In this document: positions 4,681-29,819 of the stretch, piece by piece | How the letters are laid out: every line of letters starts with the position of its first letter | Numbering within the stretch: the stretch's first letter is position 1 | Origin: Pseudodesulfovibrio mercurii | Lineage (GTDB): Bacteria > Desulfobacterota > Desulfovibrionia > Desulfovibrionales > Desulfovibrionaceae | Length of the DNA stretch: 32,000 nucleotides | Direction: 5' to 3' | Assembly: GCF_000189295.2 (NCBI RefSeq) | Contig: NC_016803.1 | Coordinates: 1,740,001-1,772,000 of the forward strand | The notes under the pieces: model-generated | Told to the model about the DNA's origin: nothing | Seen by the model: only the letters and a program-made list of their open reading frames with translations | Database searches by the model: none | Position numbers and translations under genes: made by a program

Positions 4681-4785
4681 TCCCGAACGGATCAACACCT
4701 CCTAAGGCGCACAGAAATGGACCGCAACCCACACCTGACAGCCTGATAGATACGTTTCGGACACCCCGGCCTCGGCCGGGTATCT

Positions 4786-20026: not shown

Positions 20027-21523
20027 ATGAAGGACTTCGACATAGGCACACTGCGTAACGTCAGCCGAAAAATCGTTTTGACACCAGAAATGCAGGCCCT
20101 ATGGGAATCCATGGCCGTAGGGGTAGCCGTGGTCAACGCCCAGGGCGTCTGCGAATACATGAACTCCATACAGCGCCGCACGGATGGGTTCACCCACATC
20201 AACGTAGTGGGCCAACACATCACGAACCTCTATCTCCCCCACGAACGCGATCTCATTCCGACCATGGAGTGCCTCCAGAAGAAGGCCCCCCTGCTGAAAC
20301 GCGCCTACTGGTACAAGACCACGAACAACTATCTGGCCAGCACGGTCACCGATTTTTTCCCTCTCTTCGACAACGGCGAAATAGACGGCTGCATCGCGTT
20401 CATCATCTGGCTCGGCCCCACCCTGATCAATGGCAAACGGGACAGATGCAAGGCCCCGGCCTTTTCCGGCCATACCTCCGGCCTCTATACCTTTGACAGC
20501 ATCGTGGGCCGCAACGCGCAGCTGCTTGACGTCATCCATGCGGCCAAGGCCGCCGCGAAGACCTCGGCATCGGTCATGATCTGGGGAGAATCGGGTGTGG
20601 GCAAGGAGGTTTTCGCCCAAGGCATCCACTCCGAAAGCGAGCGAAGCGGCAAGCCGTTCATCCCCGTCAACTGCGCGGCCATTCCGGAGAACCTGCTGGA
20701 AGGCATTCTGTTCGGCACCGTCAAGGGAGCCTATACCGACGCCACGGACAAGGCCGGCCTTTTCGAAAAGGCCGACGGCGGCACCCTCCTGCTCGACGAG
20801 CTGAACTCCATGCCCCTGACCCTGCAGACCAAGCTGTTGCGGGTTCTGCAGGAAAAACGCGTCTGCCGCCTCGGCTCCTATTCGGAGATTCCGGTGGATG
20901 TCCGCATCGTCAGCGTGCTGAACGAGCCGCCCCTGGCCGCCGTGGAGCGCGGCATCCTGCGCCTCGATCTCTTCTACCGGCTGGCCGTGGTCGGTCTGGA
21001 GATTCCGCCCCTGCGCGAGCGCAAGGACGACATCCCCATCCTGGCCCACTCCTTCGTCGAGGTCTCGGATCTGCGCGCCGATCACAAGTCGATCCGTTTC
21101 TCGGACGACGTGTTCCAGCAATTCCTGGAATACAGCTGGCCGGGCAACATCCGCGAGTTGGCGCACGTCATCGAATGCTGTCTGGTCATGCTCGGTTCCG
21201 CGGACGTCATCACCGACTCGTGTCTGCCGCCGCACTTCCGGAAGGCGCACATGCATGCGGAACACGCTGCCGCACCGGCGGCCTCCACCGCGTCCGTTCC
21301 GGTCGAAGCGAGCGCCGTCAGGTCCTATTTCGACTACGCCGAGGTGCAGCGCGGCGAGGTCGTCCCCCTCAAGCAATGTCTGAACGACTATGAGCGCCAC
21401 TGCATCCAGAACGTGCTGCGCGTGACCGGCGGCAACGTCGCCAAGGCCGCCCGCATCTTCCGGATGACGGCGGCTGGCCTTCGGTACCGCATCAAGACGC
21501 TCGACATCTCCGACGGCTACTGA
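20027..21523 (+). CDS. Sigma54-dependent transcriptional activator (PAS sensor - AAA+ - Fis-type HTH)
   Basis: Walker A GESGVGKE. GAFTGA-region variant FGTVKGAYTDA. GGTLLLDEL, LLRVLQEKRVCRLGS, WPGNIRELAHVIE. C-terminal HTH GGNVAKAARIFRMTAAGLRYRIK. N-terminal PAS-like region, no receiver domain. Confidence 0.9.
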   Translation: MKDFDIGTLRNVSRKIVLTPEMQALWESMAVGVAVVNAQGVCEYMNSIQRRTDGFTHINVVGQHITNLYLPHERDLIPTMECLQKKAPLLKRAYWYKTTNNYLASTVTDFFPLFDNGEIDGCIAFIIWLGPTLINGKRDRCKAPAFSGHTSGLYTFDSIVGRNAQLLDVIHAAKAAAKTSASVMIWGESGVGKEVFAQGIHSESERSGKPFIPVNCAAIPENLLEGILFGTVKGAYTDATDKAGLFEKADGGTLLLDELNSMPLTLQTKLLRVLQEKRVCRLGSYSEIPVDVRIVSVLNEPPLAAVERGILRLDLFYRLAVVGLEIPPLRERKDDIPILAHSFVEVSDLRADHKSIRFSDDVFQQFLEYSWPGNIRELAHVIECCLVMLGSADVITDSCLPPHFRKAHMHAEHAAAPAASTASVPVEASAVRSYFDYAEVQRGEVVPLKQCLNDYERHCIQNVLRVTGGNVAKAARIFRMTAAGLRYRIKTLDISDGY

Positions 21524-21597: not shown

Positions 21598-21685
21598 CCT
21601 AATCGCAAAGAGATATTGCTCTCCCTCATCGGGGTTTTCTCTAAAATAGTCCCAAAAATCAAGGATGTTAAGCAAAACACCCGAC

Positions 21686-21701
21686 TGGCACGCCTTGTGC
21701 T
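21686..21701 (+). promoter_or_regulatory. Sigma54 promoter TGGCACGCCTTGTGCT
   Basis: The -24 element TGGCACG is exact. The -12 element is GTGC instead of TTGC, with correct spacing. About 65 nt upstream of ATG 21767. Confidence 0.6.
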
Positions 21702-21766
21702 ACCCGGCAAGGTATTCGCCCCATTTGCGGCGTAAATGTACAAAACCCAAACCGGGAGAAATCGCT

Positions 21767-24268
21767 ATGACGCAAATCGAGTCCAACAACTCCAAGAAGC
21801 AGGCCATAGATGCAGTGGCGAGCATGCCTTTCGACATGACAAAGGTGGCCACAGGCCCCACGGCGTACAAGATCAACTGGGAGACGATTAACGCGAGGTT
21901 CAAGGAATACAAGGACTTTTTAATGGAAGCGCCTCAGGTGATGGACCCGGAGCGCCTCCAGTTCCTGCACGATGTATACACCGAGTACAACGGTGAGCCC
22001 GTTGTATACATCCGCGCCAGGCTGCTTGAGCGGGTGCTGACCCAGAAGAAGATTTTTCTCGACGGCAACCCCATCGTCGGCACCCTCACGGGCACGCGTT
22101 GCGGCGTCTATCCCTATCCGGAGTGGAACGTCCAGTGGATCAAGGACGAGATGCAGATGGCCAAGATGACGTCTCTTGGCGAAATGAAGATTCCCCGGGA
22201 GACCGAGGACCTGCTGAAGCAGACCTACAAGGAATGGAAGGGACGCACCTGCATCGACCTGAACAACAAGATGTTCAAGGATATGTTCGGGTTCGATTCG
22301 CACCCCTACCACAAGGCCGGCATGTTCTACGAGAACGTCAGCGTGGCCAGCGGCTCCGGCATCGCCGACTACCCCAAGGTCCTGAACCACGGCATGCGCG
22401 CCGTTCTCGACGACCTGAAGGAGCGCCTGCGCAATTGTCCCACCACGCTGGCGGACAAGGAGCGTTTCGACCTCTACCGTTCCATGATCGTGGTCTGCGA
22501 GGCCGTCATCGCCCATTCGCACCGCTACGCCGAACTGGTGGAAAATGCCGCCGCCGAGGAGACCGACCCCAAGAACAAGGCCGAACTCCTGGAGATCGCG
22601 GAGATCTGCCGCCGCGTGCCCGAATTCCCGGCCCGCAACTTCCGCGAGGCCATCCAGTCCTTCTGGTTCATGCACGTGTGCATCGAGACCGAGCAGATGG
22701 CCTGCGCCACCTCGCCCGGCCGTTTCGGCCAGTACATGTATCCCTTCTACAAGAAGGACATCGAAGAGGGTAAGCTGAACCGTGAGCAGGTCGTGGCCCT
22801 GCTGAAGCTGCAATGGATCAAGCACATGGAGCTGGCCGAGTACCAGGGCGGCTCCTACGCCAAGACCCTTTCCGGCCACACCGGCCAGACCATGACCATC
22901 GGCGGCCTGGACAAGGACGGACGCGACGCCAGCACCGAACTCGAGGTGTTGCTGCTCGAGACCCAGATCCAAGCGCGCGGCATCCAGCCGACCCTGACCC
23001 TGCTCTATCATCCGAAGCTGTCCGAGTCCTACATGGGCAAGGTCGTGCAGTGCATCCGCGGCGGCTCGGGCCAGCCCCAGATCCTCAACAACACCGCCGT
23101 GATCGAGCGCACCCTGGCCCGTTTCGCCCAATACAAGGACGGCATCACCCTGGAGGACGCCCGCAACTGCGGCAACTACGGCTGCGTATCCACCGGCATC
23201 TGCGGCAAGGGCAGCTTCATCACCCAGGAGGACCAGCCCTGTCTCGCCAAGATCATAGAAATGGTGATGTACAACGGCAAGGACCCGCGGACCAAGAAGC
23301 AACTGGGCGTGGAGACCGGCGACATCACCTCGTTCCAGAGCTTCGATGAGCTGTACGACGCCTACAAGTGCCAGTTGAAGCACCTCTTCACCGTCTCGCG
23401 CAAGCATTCCGACCTGTCGCAGATGGCCCGCCTCCAGGTGGTTCCCAGCGTGCTGCGCTCGGTGATGTACGACGGCTGCATCGAAAAGGGCATGTGCGAG
23501 GAGGCCGGGGGAACCCGCTATCCGCAGGTCAACCCGATCATGACCGCCGGTATCGACGCGGCGAACTCGCTGCTGGCCATCAAGCACCTCGTCTTCGACA
23601 CCAGAAAGATCACCATGGAGCAGCTCATGACGGCCATCAAGGCCAACTTCGAGGGATACGAGGACATCCGCAAGATGTGCTACGACGCGCCCAAGCACGG
23701 CAACGACTATCCGGAGATCGAGGAATTCGTGCAGCAGTACTACCACGACGTGGACGAAATCCACAATTCCATCGGCCCCGATTGTTTCGGCTACCGCACT
23801 CCGCTCGACGCCTACTCCCTGTCGTACCACAACTACTTCGGCGCGCTCATGGGAGCGCTTCCGACCGGCCGCAAGGCGGGTGTCGCCCTCACCGACGGCT
23901 CGGTCTCGGCCATGCCCGGCACGGACCACGAGGGCATAACCGCCCTGATCAAGGCCGGCGCGACGGCCATCGACACCGTCCGCTACGGCGCGAACCACTT
24001 CAACGTCAAGCTGGTCCCCGCCGCCCTTGAAGGCCCGGCCGGCACGCGTCTGCTGAGCTCGCTGCTCAAGACATACTGTGATCTCGGCGGCTCGCACATC
24101 CAGTTCAACGTGGTAACGTCCGCCACCCTGAAGAAGGCTCAGGAGGTCCCCCAGGAATACAAGGATCTCGTGGTCCGAGTGGCGGGCTTCAGCGCCTACT
24201 TCACCCGTTTGGACAAGGGCGTCCAGGATGAAATCGTGAAGCGTACCGAATACTCGCAGGCCTGTTAG
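21767..24268 (+). CDS. Glycyl radical enzyme (PFL2-type), substrate unknown
   Basis: Start MTQIESNN (ATG 21767, GGGAGA RBS), 833 aa. Glycyl radical motif VVRVAGFSAYF (Gly807 by my count). Cys loop NCGNYGCVSTG (Cys473), 334 residues upstream of the Gly. LPTGRKAG motif. Confidence 0.92.
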   Translation: MTQIESNNSKKQAIDAVASMPFDMTKVATGPTAYKINWETINARFKEYKDFLMEAPQVMDPERLQFLHDVYTEYNGEPVVYIRARLLERVLTQKKIFLDGNPIVGTLTGTRCGVYPYPEWNVQWIKDEMQMAKMTSLGEMKIPRETEDLLKQTYKEWKGRTCIDLNNKMFKDMFGFDSHPYHKAGMFYENVSVASGSGIADYPKVLNHGMRAVLDDLKERLRNCPTTLADKERFDLYRSMIVVCEAVIAHSHRYAELVENAAAEETDPKNKAELLEIAEICRRVPEFPARNFREAIQSFWFMHVCIETEQMACATSPGRFGQYMYPFYKKDIEEGKLNREQVVALLKLQWIKHMELAEYQGGSYAKTLSGHTGQTMTIGGLDKDGRDASTELEVLLLETQIQARGIQPTLTLLYHPKLSESYMGKVVQCIRGGSGQPQILNNTAVIERTLARFAQYKDGITLEDARNCGNYGCVSTGICGKGSFITQEDQPCLAKIIEMVMYNGKDPRTKKQLGVETGDITSFQSFDELYDAYKCQLKHLFTVSRKHSDLSQMARLQVVPSVLRSVMYDGCIEKGMCEEAGGTRYPQVNPIMTAGIDAANSLLAIKHLVFDTRKITMEQLMTAIKANFEGYEDIRKMCYDAPKHGNDYPEIEEFVQQYYHDVDEIHNSIGPDCFGYRTPLDAYSLSYHNYFGALMGALPTGRKAGVALTDGSVSAMPGTDHEGITALIKAGATAIDTVRYGANHFNVKLVPAALEGPAGTRLLSSLLKTYCDLGGSHIQFNVVTSATLKKAQEVPQEYKDLVVRVAGFSAYFTRLDKGVQDEIVKRTEYSQAC

Positions 24269-24352: not shown

Positions 24353-25249
24353 ATGTTGAAAGGAATGGTTTACAACATCCAGCGCATGTCGGTGCAGGAC
24401 GGACCGGGGCTGCGCACCACCGTCTTTCTGAAAGGCTGCCCGCTGCGCTGCCTCTGGTGCAGCAACCCGGAGTCCCAGGCGTTCACCCCGCAGCTGATGT
24501 ATTTCGAAAATCTCTGCACGGGATGCGGCGCCTGCGAAACGGCCTGTCCGAACGGAGCCGTGACCCGGCTGCGGAACGGCAAGTTCGGACGCGATCCGGA
24601 GCAATGCACGGACTGCGGCGCCTGTGCGTCCGTGTGCCCCAGCGGCGCGCGCGACATGTCGGGCAGGCCGATGACCGTCGAGGAGGTCATGCAGGTCGTT
24701 CGCAAGGACGGGACGTTCTACCTCAACTCCGGCGGCGGCGTGACCTTCGGCGGCGGAGAACCCACGGCAGGCGGGGATTTCTTCCTCTCCCTGCTCGAAC
24801 AGGCGCACAACGAGGCCTACCACTGCACGGTGGACACCTGCGGCCAGTGCCCGGAGGACCGCTTCCGGAAAACCATCGAGTTGGCGGACCTGCTGCTCTT
24901 CGACTGCAAACATATGGACCCCGCCCGGCACAGGGAACTGACCGGGCAGGACAACACGCTCATCCTGAAGAACCTTCGCAACGCCCTGAGCTCCGACACG
25001 CCGGTGCGCATCCGCATGCCGCTCATGCCCGGCCTGAACGATACGGAGGAAAACCTGGCGGCCATGGCCGATTTCCTGGGGGGCTTCGGCCTCCGGGAAG
25101 TCGAGGTCATGCCCTGCCACTTTTTCGGCCGCAACAAATATCTCGCCTTGAATCGGGCTCTACCCCTCGTGCGTCAGTACGAACCCGATGAGTTCAAGGC
25201 GATCAACGAACGCTTCCTGCGCCACGGCCTCAGGCCGGTCGTCGTGTAG
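24353..25249 (+). CDS. Glycyl-radical enzyme activating protein (radical SAM)
   Basis: GPGLRTTVFLKGCPLRCLWCSNPE (CX3CX2C). Two ferredoxin-like motifs, CTGCGACETACP and CTDCGACASVCP. GGGVTFGGGEP. 298 aa. Confidence 0.92.
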   Translation: MLKGMVYNIQRMSVQDGPGLRTTVFLKGCPLRCLWCSNPESQAFTPQLMYFENLCTGCGACETACPNGAVTRLRNGKFGRDPEQCTDCGACASVCPSGARDMSGRPMTVEEVMQVVRKDGTFYLNSGGGVTFGGGEPTAGGDFFLSLLEQAHNEAYHCTVDTCGQCPEDRFRKTIELADLLLFDCKHMDPARHRELTGQDNTLILKNLRNALSSDTPVRIRMPLMPGLNDTEENLAAMADFLGGFGLREVEVMPCHFFGRNKYLALNRALPLVRQYEPDEFKAINERFLRHGLRPVVV

Positions 25250-25272
25250 CGGATAAAAAAAACGAGGAACGC

Positions 25273-25569
25273 ATGTTTACCCTGAACGCGGCGGACGCCA
25301 TTCTCGAAAGGCTCCGCGAGATACTTGAGGACGAGGACGAAGGCGTCTGTGTCCGCCTGCGCGAATACAGCGTCGGCGGTGGATGACACAGCAAGGTCGT
25401 GCTTGGTCTAGGCACGGACGAACCCGATGAGGAGGACGACGAACGGATCGACGTGAAGGGCGTCCCGTTCATCGCCGAAAAGGACTTTCTGCTGAATCAC
25501 GGCGGAAACTACGAATTGACCCTGAACGAAGACCAGCAAATGGTCTTGAACGCGCTCGCGGGAGCGTGA
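25273..25569 (+). CDS. HesB/IscA-like small selenoprotein (in-frame TGA at 25384-25386 read as Sec38)
   Basis: ATG 25273 lies 23 nt after the activase stop. Hand translation: MFTLNAADAILERLREILEDEDEGVCVRLREYSVGGG-U-HSKVVLGLGTDEPDEEDDERIDVKGVPFIAEKDFLLNHGGNYELTLNEDQQMVLNALAGA, 98 codons. Collinear with the 98-aa paralog at 25634, where Cys38 aligns with the TGA. Absent from the ORF track. Confidence 0.7.
25396..25419 (+). promoter_or_regulatory. SECIS-like hairpin downstream of the TGA
   Basis: GUCGUGC / GCACG(G)AC stem of 7 bp with one bulge, and a 9-nt loop UUGGUCUAG. The stem starts 10 nt after the UGA. GGUC occupies +22 to +25 relative to the U of UGA. Confidence 0.5.
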
Positions 25570-25633
25570 CCGGAACCGGCTGCGGCGTCGGCGCGGCAGA
25601 GGGCCATCCCCGCAAGCGCGAAAAGGAGAAGAC

Positions 25634-25930
25634 ATGTTCACAGTGGATACGACGAAAGAGCTTCTCGAAAAGCTTCGCGCCCTGTTGGCGGAGGAAGACC
25701 CGGAGACCTGCGTGCGCCTGCGCGAGTACAATGCCGGATGCGGCTGCAACAGCAAGATCCGGCTCGGCCTGGGGCTGGACGAGCCTGAAGATGAGGACGA
25801 ACGGATCAGCGTGCGGGAAATCCCGTTTATCGCGGAAAAGGATTTTCTGCTGAAGCACGGCAGATCCTATGCTCTGGCTTTCGACGAAAATAGGGAAACC
25901 GTCCTCACCGCGCTGGATGCGTCGGATTAG
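25634..25930 (+). CDS. HesB/IscA-like small protein, Cys-containing paralog
   Basis: 98 aa: MFTVDTTKELLEKLRALLAEEDPETCVRLREYNAGCGCNSKIRLGLGLDEP...IPFIAEKDFLLKHG. GAAAAGGAGAAGAC upstream of the ATG. Resembles the N-terminal two thirds of IscA/HesB (xRLxVxxxGCxG) and lacks the C-terminal CGC. Confidence 0.8.
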   Translation: MFTVDTTKELLEKLRALLAEEDPETCVRLREYNAGCGCNSKIRLGLGLDEPEDEDERISVREIPFIAEKDFLLKHGRSYALAFDENRETVLTALDASD

Positions 25931-25987: not shown

Positions 25988-26027
25988 AATCCCCCTTCCG
26001 ATGGCCGGAAGGGGGATTCCCTTTTCC
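25988..26027 (+). terminator. Terminator of the GRE operon (AATCCCCCTTCCG-ATGGC-CGGAAGGGGGATT then CCCTTTTCC)
   Basis: Perfect 13-bp stem followed by an interrupted T tract. Confidence 0.6.
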
Positions 26028-26636: not shown

Positions 26637-29600
26637 CTATCCGCTCTCCCCTCCCCTTGGCCGTCGGGCCTCGATGGTCTTGCCCGGCTTGAGTTCGAAG
26701 GGTTGGCCGAAGATTTCCACGGGCACGATCTTGTCGCCCTGGTGGAAGGCGGTCATGTTGACGCGGTCCTGTTCGACGACGAGGTCGAACCAGATGGACC
26801 GCCAGATGAAGGACAGACGCATTTCGCCCCAGTGTACGGGCGGGTCCGGGTCGATGCGCATGGGCGTGGCGGACAGGTTGAGCCCGGCGTAGTCCTGTTT
26901 GAGGACTTCGAGGGTCCCGGCCATGACGCCGGTGTGGATGCCTTCCACGGTGGTGCCGCCCTGGGTGTCGTAGATATCGGACTGCATGGCCTCCATGAAC
27001 CAGTCCCAGGAGACGTTGCTCGGGTAGATGTACCGGGCGATGACGGCGTGGACGACCTTGGACAGGGTGGAGCCGTGGCTGGTCCGCTTTTCGTAGAAGT
27101 CGTAGTTGTCCTTGAGCAGCTTGAGGGGGTCGGGCACGTCGTGGCCGAGCTTGCGCAGGATGCGGGCCACCTCGTCGGGTTCGAGGATGTACCAGGTCAT
27201 CAGGGTGTCGGCCTGCTTGGCGACCTTGTAGTTGTCGGGCGAGTCGCCTTCGGCCTTGAGGATGCGGTCCATGCGGTGGATGGAGTAGAAGCGCTGGCGG
27301 TAGGAATCCCAGTCCAGCTCGGGCAGGTCCATGTAGCCGTCGAACTGGCTGATGATGCCGTCCTCGGAGACGATGACGTTGAGCCTGGTGGTCATATCCC
27401 GCCACTTGGCGACCTCCTCGTCGGTCAGGCCGATGTGCGCGGTGATCTGCTTCTTCAGGCGGGGCGGCAGGGTTTCGAGCACGGACAGGGCCTTTTCCAG
27501 GAGCCAGACGACCATGATGTTGGTGTAGGCGTTGTCGCGCAGGCCGGACTCGTCGGAGCCGGGCAGTTTTTCGTGGAACTCGTCCGGGCCCATGACCCCG
27601 TCGATATGGTAGGCGCCGGAGGTTTCGTCGAGGGTGGCGATGTCGCCCCAGAAGCGGGCGATGTCGAGCATCAGCTCCGCGCCGTATTCGCGCAGGAAGG
27701 CCTGGTCGCCGGTCCAGGAGACGTAACGCCAGGCGTTGACGAACACGGCGATGGACACGTGCCGCTGGCGGCGGGACAGGTCCGGCCCCCAGGTCTTGGA
27801 CTCGGGATTGTAGTGGACTTCCTGGGTCTCCTCGCTGCCGTCGTCGGCGGTCTGCCAGGGGAACATGGCCCCCGTATAGTCGTTTTCGCGGGCGTATTCG
27901 CGGGCCGCGTCGAGGCGGTTGTAGCGGTACATGAGCAGGGCCTTCGAGATGTCCGGGAAGTTGGCGTCGAAGAAGGGCAGGATGTAGACCTCGTCCCAGA
28001 AGATGTGGCCCCGGTAGGCCTCGCCGGACAGGCCACGGGCGGGCATGCCCGCGTCGCGGCCCACGTTGTGCGGGCTGGCCGTGACCAGCAGGTGGTAGAC
28101 GTGGAGGCGCAGCACGCGCTGGACGAAGCGGTCGCCCTTGACCCGTATGTCCGCCTTTTGCCAGAGGTTTTTCCATGACTTGGCGTGGGGGCCGAAGACG
28201 CCCTTGAAGGTCTTCACGCCCTTGAGCCCATCCAGGCACAGGTCGCGCAGGTCGCCGGGTTCGCGATCCAGAGAGGTGCGCACGTGGACGAACTTTTCCA
28301 GGCCGTAGCAGTGGTTCTCCTTGACCTGGACGCAGATTTCCTCGGAGACCCTGGCCCGGTCCTGGACTACCTCCTTGCGCACCTCGATGGGCTTGCCGTC
28401 CTCGAGCAGGCGGGTCTTGGCGGCCATGACGATCTGGTAGCGCGAGTGGGAGGTCTCCACGTGCAGATAGATGCCGTCGCCCGCCTTGCCGCCGCCCACC
28501 CGGTTGAGGTGGCGGGTGTTCAGGCTGGCATAACGGGCCACGCCCTCGTTGCTGACGTTGCCGTCCAGCGAGGAACGGAAAGTCAGCTTGGCGGCGTAGT
28601 TAAGCGGGGTGAAGTCGAATTGCAGGGCGAGCAGGTGGGGGTCGGCCATGGAGGCCACGCGCCGGGAGGATATGCGGGTGATGCGGCCCACCTGATCGCG
28701 GACCACGAGGTGGCGTTCCATGACCGCCACGCGCATATTCAGGCGGTGGGAATAGCTGAGGATTTCCATGGACAGGGGCGAGACGAACTCGCCGTTGCCG
28801 ATCTTGAAGGCCACGGGCAGCCAGTTGGGGCAGTTGACCAGGTCGTTGTTCCAGATCTCGCGCCCCTCCACGTCGCTGGGGGTCTTGTTGAAGATGCCCG
28901 AGACGTAGGTGCCGGGGTAGAAGTAGTAGGAAGAGCACTCGCACTCGTAGGCCCCGCGCGAGCCTAGGTAGCCGTTGCCCACGCAGGTCAGGGTCTCGCG
29001 CAGCTTCTCGTCGCCCGGCTCGAAGCCGTGGTAGGTCAGGAACCATTCGTCCGTGGCCATGCCGGACTCGAACCACTCCATGAGGTCGTCCACGGTGATC
29101 TCGCCCAGGTCGGACACGACCATGTCGGCCCCGAACCGCTTCAGCATCTCGCCGCCGATGTTCCGGGCGATGCCGAGCGTCAGGCCGAAGTTGCCCGCGC
29201 ATCCGGCCTGGACGCCGGACAGGGAGTCCTCGACCACGGCGCACTCGCCGGGATGGAGGCCCATCCTTTCGGCGGCGGCCACGAAGATGTCGGGATCGGG
29301 CTTGCCCTTGAGGTCGAGTTCGGCCGAGACCACGCCGTCCACGTGGGCGTCGAACAGGGTGGTCAGCCCGGCCAGCTCCAGAACGAGCATGCCGTTGCGG
29401 CTGGAGGTGGCCAGGGCCACGAGCACGCCGTTGCGCTTGAGCTCCCTGACCAGGGCCACGGAGGAGTCGAAGACCTCGGGCCCCTGCTCCTTGAGGATTT
29501 CCTGGAAAAGCGCGTTCTTCTTGTTGCCGATGGCGCAGACCGTGTCGTAGCCCGGCGGGTCGTCCGGCTCGCCGGGGGCCAGCCGGATGTTGCGGGACTT

Positions 29601-29819
29601 GAGGAAGCTGAGCACGCCCTCGAAGCGCGGCTTGCCGTCCACGTAGTTCTGGTAGTCGCTCGTGCGGTCAAAGGGCTCGAACGGGGTGCCGGTCTCCTCG
29701 GCCTGGTGCTTGAGAAATTCGTTGAAGGAGGCCTCCCAGGCCTGGGCGTGCACCTTTGCCGTCCGGGTGATGACGCCGTCCAGGTCGAAGACCACGCCCT
29801 TGAGTGTGATTGCTGCCAC
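26637..29819 (-). CDS. Fusion protein: N-terminal beta-phosphoglucomutase-type HAD domain + GH65 disaccharide phosphorylase (kojibiose/trehalose/maltose phosphorylase family)
   Basis: GTG start at 29819 with an AAGGAG RBS 6 nt upstream. VVFDLDGVITRT (HAD motif I), GKPDPDIF, VEDSLSGVQAG. Then GH65-like GNGYLGSRG, HIFWDEVYILPFF and MFPWQTADDGSEETQ. 1060 aa. Confidence 0.9.
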   Translation of the reverse strand: MAAITLKGVVFDLDGVITRTAKVHAQAWEASFNEFLKHQAEETGTPFEPFDRTSDYQNYVDGKPRFEGVLSFLKSRNIRLAPGEPDDPPGYDTVCAIGNKKNALFQEILKEQGPEVFDSSVALVRELKRNGVLVALATSSRNGMLVLELAGLTTLFDAHVDGVVSAELDLKGKPDPDIFVAAAERMGLHPGECAVVEDSLSGVQAGCAGNFGLTLGIARNIGGEMLKRFGADMVVSDLGEITVDDLMEWFESGMATDEWFLTYHGFEPGDEKLRETLTCVGNGYLGSRGAYECECSSYYFYPGTYVSGIFNKTPSDVEGREIWNNDLVNCPNWLPVAFKIGNGEFVSPLSMEILSYSHRLNMRVAVMERHLVVRDQVGRITRISSRRVASMADPHLLALQFDFTPLNYAAKLTFRSSLDGNVSNEGVARYASLNTRHLNRVGGGKAGDGIYLHVETSHSRYQIVMAAKTRLLEDGKPIEVRKEVVQDRARVSEEICVQVKENHCYGLEKFVHVRTSLDREPGDLRDLCLDGLKGVKTFKGVFGPHAKSWKNLWQKADIRVKGDRFVQRVLRLHVYHLLVTASPHNVGRDAGMPARGLSGEAYRGHIFWDEVYILPFFDANFPDISKALLMYRYNRLDAAREYARENDYTGAMFPWQTADDGSEETQEVHYNPESKTWGPDLSRRQRHVSIAVFVNAWRYVSWTGDQAFLREYGAELMLDIARFWGDIATLDETSGAYHIDGVMGPDEFHEKLPGSDESGLRDNAYTNIMVVWLLEKALSVLETLPPRLKKQITAHIGLTDEEVAKWRDMTTRLNVIVSEDGIISQFDGYMDLPELDWDSYRQRFYSIHRMDRILKAEGDSPDNYKVAKQADTLMTWYILEPDEVARILRKLGHDVPDPLKLLKDNYDFYEKRTSHGSTLSKVVHAVIARYIYPSNVSWDWFMEAMQSDIYDTQGGTTVEGIHTGVMAGTLEVLKQDYAGLNLSATPMRIDPDPPVHWGEMRLSFIWRSIWFDLVVEQDRVNMTAFHQGDKIVPVEIFGQPFELKPGKTIEARRPRGGESG

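Follow-up and report, generated by a model that had tools for sequence, protein, structure and literature searches.

An in-frame TGA in an ErpA-related gene of Pseudodesulfovibrio mercurii is probably read as selenocysteine

Does the TGA that interrupts a short reading frame upstream of a small iron-sulphur-type gene in Pseudodesulfovibrio mercurii end a protein, or does it encode selenocysteine (Sec)? The question is raised by positions 25273-25569 on the plus strand of a 32,000-nt stretch of contig NC_016803.1 (the window; all positions are those of this full stretch), which translate into a product resembling that of the next gene along except that one codon is TGA. The reading favoured here, to which we give a probability of about 0.88, is that 25273-25569 is a single gene whose product, a selenoprotein of 98 residues, belongs to the ErpA-related family NF033940, that UGA codon 38 would be decoded by means of a selenocysteine insertion sequence (SECIS), and that the product would be an accessory of a glycyl-radical-enzyme (GRE) system.

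An in-frame TGA opposite an invariant cysteine

The elements on which the argument turns are these:

25273-25569, plus strand: putative selenoprotein gene of 98 codons, with Sec at codon 38, its own stop, TGA, at 25567-25569 and a predicted full-length product of about 10.7 kDa (from translation, NF033940, the paralog and orthologs).
25264-25268, plus strand: Shine-Dalgarno-like GAGGA, 4 nt 5' of ATG 25273 (from reading of the sequence).
25384-25386, plus strand: in-frame UGA as predicted selenocysteine U38, opposite the family-invariant Cys and the first cluster-ligand Cys of A-type carriers (from alignment).
25397-25417, plus strand: predicted SECIS hairpin (from the minimum free energy fold, pairing across 14 sequences, synonymous-site constraint, the fdhF register and a covariance model).
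25634-25930, plus strand: tandem Cys paralog of 98 amino acids with the motif GCGCNSK, 100% identical to DND132_1585 of Pseudodesulfovibrio mercurii, a species whose earlier name was Desulfovibrio desulfuricans ND132 (from sequence comparison).

Translation of 25273-25569 gives MFTLNAADAILERLREILEDEDEGVCVRLREYSVGGG and HSKVVLGLGTDEPDEEDDERIDVKGVPFIAEKDFLLNHGGNYELTLNEDQQMVLNALAGA, separated by TGA 25384-25386, the sole internal stop, and closed by the terminal one. A first-pass annotation of this DNA had proposed a hidden selenoprotein gene here, and its description of a 98-codon frame running from ATG 25273 and broken only at 25384-25386 was correct. The open reading frame (ORF) listing cuts the gene into a 37-aa ORF (25273-25386) and a 56-aa ORF (25399-25569), and at the default threshold of 60 aa it has no entry there; the warning that gene callers would easily miss or split the gene is thus borne out by the listing, and public records split it as well. 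As had also been proposed, the product is collinear with that of 25634-25930 (57% identity, E 2e-39), with the TGA exactly opposite Cys38 of the paralog, the two loops reading GGGUHSK and GCGCNSK respectively. The C-terminus of the Sec form (...NALAGA) is without Cys, and the protein has an extra, near-invariant Cys26. TGA is the normal stop of 8 of the 19 ORFs in the window, the own stop of 25273-25569 included, so the genetic code is not reassigned.

Conservation of the TGA and of the downstream frame

The gene was compared with 24 related loci, found in genome and metagenome scans and by looking up the fragments returned by protein searches, and with a 25th, L025, which is considered below. 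The TGA forms come from Halodesulfovibrio, Desulfobaculum xiamenense, several metagenome-assembled genomes of Desulfovibrionaceae and unbinned contigs. The TGA occupies the identical codon in all 20 Sec-form copies, 14 of them distinct, and no other stop or frameshift occurs in any; the first-pass annotation had named a genuine stop or a frameshifted pseudogene among the orthologs as grounds for giving up its reading, and the frame is intact in all 14. The motif across the copies is G-[GSA]-G-U-H-[ASC]-K, with His always next after Sec, and the residue aligned with the TGA is an invariant Cys in more than 40 Cys homologs. Furthermore, Sec forms compared pairwise have an amino-acid identity of 0.70 upstream of the TGA and 0.64 downstream, from which it follows that the downstream part is translated. 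The pattern of TGA and hairpin exceeds chance. Because the 14 orthologs keep the TGA, the downstream frame and the hairpin, the reading as a selenoprotein is supported, and with it the core of the original proposal: a hidden gene, a TGA on the Cys of the paralog and a SECIS-like hairpin.

One further copy, L025 369-662, on a single metagenome contig of 677 bp, has TTA (Leu) at the Sec codon (480-482) with the hairpin intact; the TTA could reflect an error in sequencing, or else a mutation that inactivated the gene recently.

A predicted SECIS hairpin just after the TGA

Counting the U of the UGA as 1, positions 14-21 pair with positions 27-34 (25397-25404 with 25410-25417) in a helix of 8 uninterrupted bp, closed by the apical loop GGUCU at +22 to +26 (25405-25409). 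The stem starts 10 nt and the loop 18 nt 3' of the UGA, and hairpin energies range from -7.7 to -10.3 kcal/mol. Bacterial SECIS elements have a G at the start of an apical loop of 3-14 nt that lies 16-37 nt from the UGA, on a stem of at least 4 bp; the hairpin at 25397-25417 has this geometry, immediately 3' of the UGA. It was already clear from the first-pass annotation that GGUC stood at +22 to +25 (25405-25408) and that a stem began 10 nt after the TGA. The 7-bp bulged stem with a 9-nt loop that it drew is replaced, on comparison, by 8 bp and a 5-nt loop; U20, U21, A27 and G28, which it left unpaired in the loop, all pair, and pair 21:27 covaries.

Every Sec form has the consensus UGA-CA[CU]-N7-U-N-[GA]UGCU[CU]-GGUCU-[GA]GGCA[UC]-N-G. 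In the alignment of the 14 sequences 98.2% of cells are paired, as against 25-50% when the 3' partner columns are slid by 1-3. Both sides change with pairing kept at 15:33 (C-G, A-U, U-A, U-G) and at 21:27 (C-G elsewhere, U-A in the window), and one side changes with pairing kept at 16:32 (G-U, A-U, G-C); the covariation score was attained by only 4 of 500 shuffles. Third positions are nearly frozen at codons 43-47 (V-L-G-L-G) of the Sec forms, with entropies of 0.00, 0.37, 0.00, 0.37 and 0.00 bits, whereas invariant Leu, Gly and Ala codons elsewhere in these genes have 1.1-1.8 bits; the hairpin's synonymous sites are variable in the Cys paralogs. Frozen synonymous sites at the hairpin codons require an explanation at the level of RNA. 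A covariance model gave 60-72 bits to Sec forms (62.2 for the window gene) and 16-29 bits to Cys paralogs (20.4 for the window paralog), and outside these genes no match below E = 0.3 was found in 148 kb; this test is partly circular, since the training sequences are among the matches.

One Cys form departs from this distribution. L007 4577-4861 (TGT at 4682; identical to P0003, from Desulfovibrio sp. Fe33) adjoins the Sec copy L007 5001-5291 and keeps the exact SECIS core GUGCUCGGUCUGGGCAU, scoring 52.8 bits where the remaining Cys forms score 16-29 bits. The core has the look of a fossil SECIS, left by a recent switch from Sec to Cys after duplication.

Comparison with the fdhF SECIS of Escherichia coli

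The SECIS of E. coli fdhF was verified by database sequence matching: its sequence is matched at 100% in the records listed and at 99% identity or better in 5413 of 5420; of 5426 E. coli genomes 5419 have it, and in each case it lies under fdhF. The verified sequence has GGUCU at +22 to +26, which agrees with the register that the first-pass annotation had given. G23 and U24 of this loop are the contacts of SelB. The window family has the same UGA-CAC context and the same GGUCU loop at +22 to +26, so that the register of G23 and U24 is identical (the loop is found in 14 of 14 Sec forms); in both, the hairpin starts some 10-11 nt after the UGA within coding sequence, and the loop encodes Gly-Leu. 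The two differ in that the stem sequence is not that of fdhF and no extended lower helix is present.

A separate branch of the HesB/IscA superfamily

The two window proteins belong by score to NF033940 (NCBIfam, ErpA-related iron-sulfur cluster insertion protein): against a cutoff of 65 bits the Sec form, with U replaced by C, reaches 141.8 and the paralog 137, and both cover profile positions 1-94 of 95. The family named in the first-pass annotation, TIGR01911, was not recovered in the hidden Markov model (HMM) search; neither protein matches it (cutoff 66.35 bits) at E<=1, and both fall short of the NF038090 cutoff of 85, with 23.5 bits for the Sec form and 34.5 for the paralog. The published HesB-like selenoprotein of D. 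vulgaris scores 113.9 bits with NF038090 and 42.5 bits with TIGR01911, so both models were in the library. A BLASTP comparison of the window protein with that selenoprotein gives a local similarity of 28 residues only, in which U38 is aligned with its Sec.

HesB-like selenoproteins have been known since 2004, the family reportedly going back to Kryukov and Gladyshev. They read G-x-G-U-[GS]-G-P and have Cys-rich C-terminal tails such as ...GGCGSSSSCCS (Zhang et al. 2006, supplement 4, PMC1794560); in a 2026 review the family appears as TIGR01911, its motif given as UxGP (PMC13188914). Like them, the window protein is a small member of the HesB/IscA superfamily (about 95-135 residues) from anaerobes including Desulfovibrio, and its one Sec stands where the A-type-carrier loop has its first conserved Cys. 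Unlike them, it has the motif UHSK rather than UxGP, no Cys-rich C-terminal tail and the extra Cys26, and its family is strictly linked to a GRE operon, usually with a tandem Cys paralog. Membership of the HesB-like selenoproteins (TIGR01911/NF038090) is ruled out by the HMM scores, the motif and the absent Cys tail. The earlier remark that the family itself is not new therefore holds for the superfamily and fails for the HesB-like selenoprotein family. Cys homologs are common in the latter, and Cys forms with a "fossil SECIS" have been described in it (PMC1794560), to which the Cys copy of L007 with its kept SECIS core may be compared.

In the family profile GGGC lines up with the GGGC that holds the first ligand Cys in HI1723 (ErpA-like, PDB 2apn). 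On these alignments and scores the window protein is best placed in the HesB/IscA superfamily as a branch of its own, one whose Sec takes the homologous ligand position.

The fold was modelled from the Cys paralog (25634-25927). The AlphaFold2 model has a pLDDT (predicted local distance difference test) of 84.4, with the Cys loop 36-39 disordered, and Foldseek relates it with probability 1.00 and template modelling (TM) scores of 0.58-0.73 to IscA, SufA and HI1723 (1s98, 1x0g, 2d2a, 2apn); DsrR and YneR match in the same TM range. The modelled fold is thus that of HesB/IscA, as in IscA, SufA and ErpA (PF01521), with whose first ligand Cys the GGGC loop aligns. The split in the Sec gene would come inside one folded domain: in the paralog model it maps to the loop that joins strands 26-34 and 41-49. 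First among the Foldseek neighbours comes YneR of B. subtilis, in a model with pyruvate dehydrogenase E1 (9a4q).

The glycyl-radical-enzyme operon

Upstream of the Sec gene the order is amino-acid permease, EamA-type transporter, sigma-54 activator, GRE and activase; in this sigma-54-controlled GRE operon the Sec gene comes fourth among the cistrons, ahead of the Cys paralog. The genes concerned are:

20027-21523, plus strand: sigma-54-dependent transcriptional activator, PrdR-like (from a profile match; it stands beside the GRE in related loci, in either orientation).
21665-24268, plus strand: GRE, of a specificity not assigned by NCBIfam, with the Cys loop GCVST and the glycyl motif RVAGFSAYF (from profile search and orthologs).
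24353-25249, plus strand: GRE activating enzyme, radical SAM with a ferredoxin-like insert (from TIGR02494, 348.5 bits against a cutoff of 174).

The linkage is strict. In 12 of 12 loci with enough sequence one or more ErpA-related genes lie downstream of the same GRE, with a sigma-54 activator nearby, and in 11 of these the activase lies between them, the exception being L017. In that locus (L017 640-3484, a Logan contig) a split Sec gene directly follows the GRE, and an amino-acid permease lies downstream. Most loci have the Sec form and a tandem Cys paralog; L001, L003 and L017 have the Sec form only, and others, such as L004, Cys forms only. The tandem Cys paralogs (L002, L006, L008, L012, L015 and the window) have lineage-specific loops such as GCGCHSK, GSGCSSK, GGGCRSR and GCACSCQ. 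In a rough neighbour-joining tree, a weak one given such short proteins, Sec forms group with the Cys paralogs of their own lineage, which suggests repeated duplication or gene conversion.

The GRE itself, whose orthologs are 77-87% identical in all loci, falls below all NCBIfam equivalog cutoffs, and its best PDB match is 426 bits. HplG, HypD and IslA were ruled out as its identity; it is below the equivalog cutoffs and distant from every solved GRE. Its Cys loop (near 23150-23190) is NYGCVSTG[IV]CGKG in all 12 orthologs and aligns with GCVETG of HypD and GCIEPQ of HplG, so that this enzyme has Ser where the CXE motif has its catalytic Glu. The CXE motif is a feature of GRE eliminases and isomerases, and the replacement suggests a different chemistry. 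As to the substrate, the amino-acid permease and the PrdR-like regulator point to a compound derived from an amino acid.

The true start of the GRE is probably ATG 21767 (MTQIESNN...), within the 867-aa ORF, because homologs align only from about residue 42-67; this ATG is preceded by a ribosome-binding site, GGGAGA. A strict search for the sigma-54 pattern gave no match upstream of the GRE. By eye, a near-consensus sigma-54-like -24/-12 element, TGGCACGCCTTGTGC, is found at 21686-21700, inside the 5' extension of the 867-aa ORF.

Annotation status and literature

Retrieval with the family profile gave 79 proteins. About 23 of them are fragments of 50-60 aa starting just after the TGA, three are full length with Trp at the Sec position, one has Leu there and none has U; every full-length member of NF033940 retrieved that is not a misreading is a Cys form, the TGA forms appearing as fragments or misreadings only. 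The three Trp proteins (P0008, P0034 and P0048, with the loop GGGWHAK) carry the Trp at the Sec codon, and the DNA of L023/L024 173-478, which is that of P0048, has TGA there. The Trp calls are a translation-table artefact which hides Sec forms in protein databases. In Logan, ENA, JGI and NCBI records the gene is present as pieces of 37 aa and 50-60 aa, the longer ones labelled "hypothetical protein" or entered under the family name with a truncated length.

In the literature search the name "ErpA-related" was found in no paper, and the 2026 review of prokaryotic selenoprotein families has no ErpA, IscA or NF033940 (PMC13188914). From the public records inspected, this is apparently an unannotated selenoprotein branch of a known superfamily. 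Searches on selenocysteine in ND132 or Pseudodesulfovibrio returned nothing usable, and those on a glycyl radical enzyme in Pseudodesulfovibrio, or on glycyl radical together with HesB, nothing relevant. Desulfovibrio species carry the Sec trait, with 7-8 selenoproteins each (PMC1794560).

Discussion

In the mechanism proposed, the mRNA just downstream would fold into a bacterial SECIS, with G23 and U24 of its GGUCU loop at the positions that SelB recognises in E. coli fdhF, and UGA codon 38 would be decoded as selenocysteine. The Sec would take the place of the loop Cys that is the first Fe-S-ligand Cys of IscA, SufA and ErpA, making U38-H39 the likely reactive or ligand site. The Sec/Cys pair would then probably be a dedicated cluster-handling or redox accessory of the GRE system. 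One option is the delivery or repair of the [4Fe-4S] clusters of the activase, in which a selenolate ligand might speed the transfer of the cluster or of iron. The co-transcribed Cys paralog could be a partner, or could retain some activity when scarce selenium makes the UGA terminate.

Several results weigh against this account or parts of it. The folding energy of the hairpin as a single sequence is at the shuffled level (z = 0.0), and thus the case for a selenoprotein rests on comparison and not on thermodynamics. The near-invariant core of the hairpin, in turn, leaves few events from which covariation can be read. Unlike fdhF the hairpin has no bulged U17; in the window family U17 pairs with A31 in 14 of 14 sequences. 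No SECIS match was found in Rfam, either in a gathering search of the whole window or in a search of 25200-25650 at E<=10 (which gave only a chance snoRNA), a null taken as uninformative for short bacterial SECIS elements, and the 32-kb window has no tRNA of any kind, nor was a tRNA-Sec found in the 12 related loci scanned. On the side of function, no member of the family has the C-terminal CxC (C-G-C) ligands of A-type carriers, the loop U38/C38 being the only one; the Sec protein scores 17.4 with PF01521 against a gathering value of 26.3, and the Cys paralog has no match. YneR, the nearest structural neighbour of the paralog model, is an enzyme-binding regulator of HesB fold without a cluster. 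The functional part of the account is guilt by association only.

These last points also favour an alternative for the function, which we regard as possible though doubtful: that the protein is a selenoprotein but no Fe-S carrier, and instead binds the GRE or its activase, as a small subunit, a regulator or a redox partner, by analogy with the Fe-S small subunits of HPAD and BSS, with the cluster-less YneR/PdhI and DsrR, or with selenol/thiol redox proteins. Consistent with this, DsrR is matched in addition to YneR, whose model contains the E1 enzyme; the gene keeps strictly to the neighbourhood of one GRE clade and not to that of isc or suf, a context in which it differs from the A-type carriers; and in L017 no activase intervenes between it and the GRE. 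Known selenoproteins are, moreover, mostly redox proteins (PMC13188914). Against it, the conserved residue is exactly the ligand Cys of A-type carriers, in the same GGG-C loop, the extra loop Cys of the Cys paralogs (GCGC, GCACSC) resembles metal ligation, and the Sec forms are without a partner Cys at CxxU or UxxC distance. The GRE clade is sigma-54-controlled and linked to amino-acid transporters; that the Sec/Cys pair is a dedicated accessory of this uncharacterised clade, as a selenolate Fe-S/Fe-Se carrier, a repair factor for the activase or a new GRE small subunit, is a tentative proposal, held at well under even odds.

Far less probable is that the TGA is a real stop, and the locus either a decaying pseudogene or two small genes, one for the 37-aa peptide and one for a 56-aa protein starting at GTG 25399. 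This GTG is a possible start codon, and all gene callers split the gene here and leave the two pieces in public records. Yet a pseudogene would not retain one single stop, always at this codon and without frameshifts, across 14 diverged lineages, the protein is equally conserved on both sides of the TGA, and the split would fall within a single folded domain; the starts called for the fragments vary (MLGLG..., MEEMD...) with no conserved ribosome-binding site, and the frozen synonymous sites demand an RNA-level cause. Weaker still, and very improbable, is readthrough of the UGA without Sec (by near-cognate Trp or Cys, or under a locally reassigned code, the hairpin merely stimulating), for which some public calls of Trp might speak were they not the artefact described above, and which has against it the use of TGA as a normal stop in the window, a codon placed on an invariant Cys in the classic Sec/Cys pattern, to which Trp is not chemically equivalent, a hairpin that matches the SelB-binding loop of fdhF in both sequence and register, and Sec at the homologous position of published HesB-like selenoproteins.

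If the selenoprotein reading is right, the HesB/IscA superfamily would have a second branch, curated separately, that carries Sec at its cluster-ligand position, which would strengthen the case for a selected chemistry of selenolate ligation or transfer; the decoding mechanism is textbook and HesB-like selenoproteins are already known, so the advance would be incremental and not categorical. A role as a GRE accessory, if true, would make the window protein the first selenoprotein tied to glycyl-radical enzymology, with the tandem Cys paralog as a built-in backup for selenium shortage, and the strict linkage to one uncharacterised GRE clade offers a testable lead in that direction. The Sec forms, the Cys paralogs and the one apparent fossil SECIS form a natural experiment on the exchange of Sec and Cys. 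For annotation, about a third of the family retrieved is split or misread at the Sec codon, including that of the mercury-methylation model strain ND132, and counts of selenoproteins in sulfate reducers would be too low as a result.

Region downstream of the Cys paralog

One further feature was read from the sequence beyond the paralog:

25991-26025, plus strand: terminator-like hairpin of 10 GC-rich bp, CCCCCTTCCG/CGGAAGGGGG, followed by the T-rich ATTCCCTTTTCC.

This hairpin, which a consensus terminator scan did not call, likely closes the operon after the Cys paralog. Convergent with the operon, at 26637-29819 on the minus strand, lies a gene for a 1060-aa fusion of a beta-phosphoglucomutase-family HAD domain with a GH65 glycoside phosphorylase/hydrolase domain.

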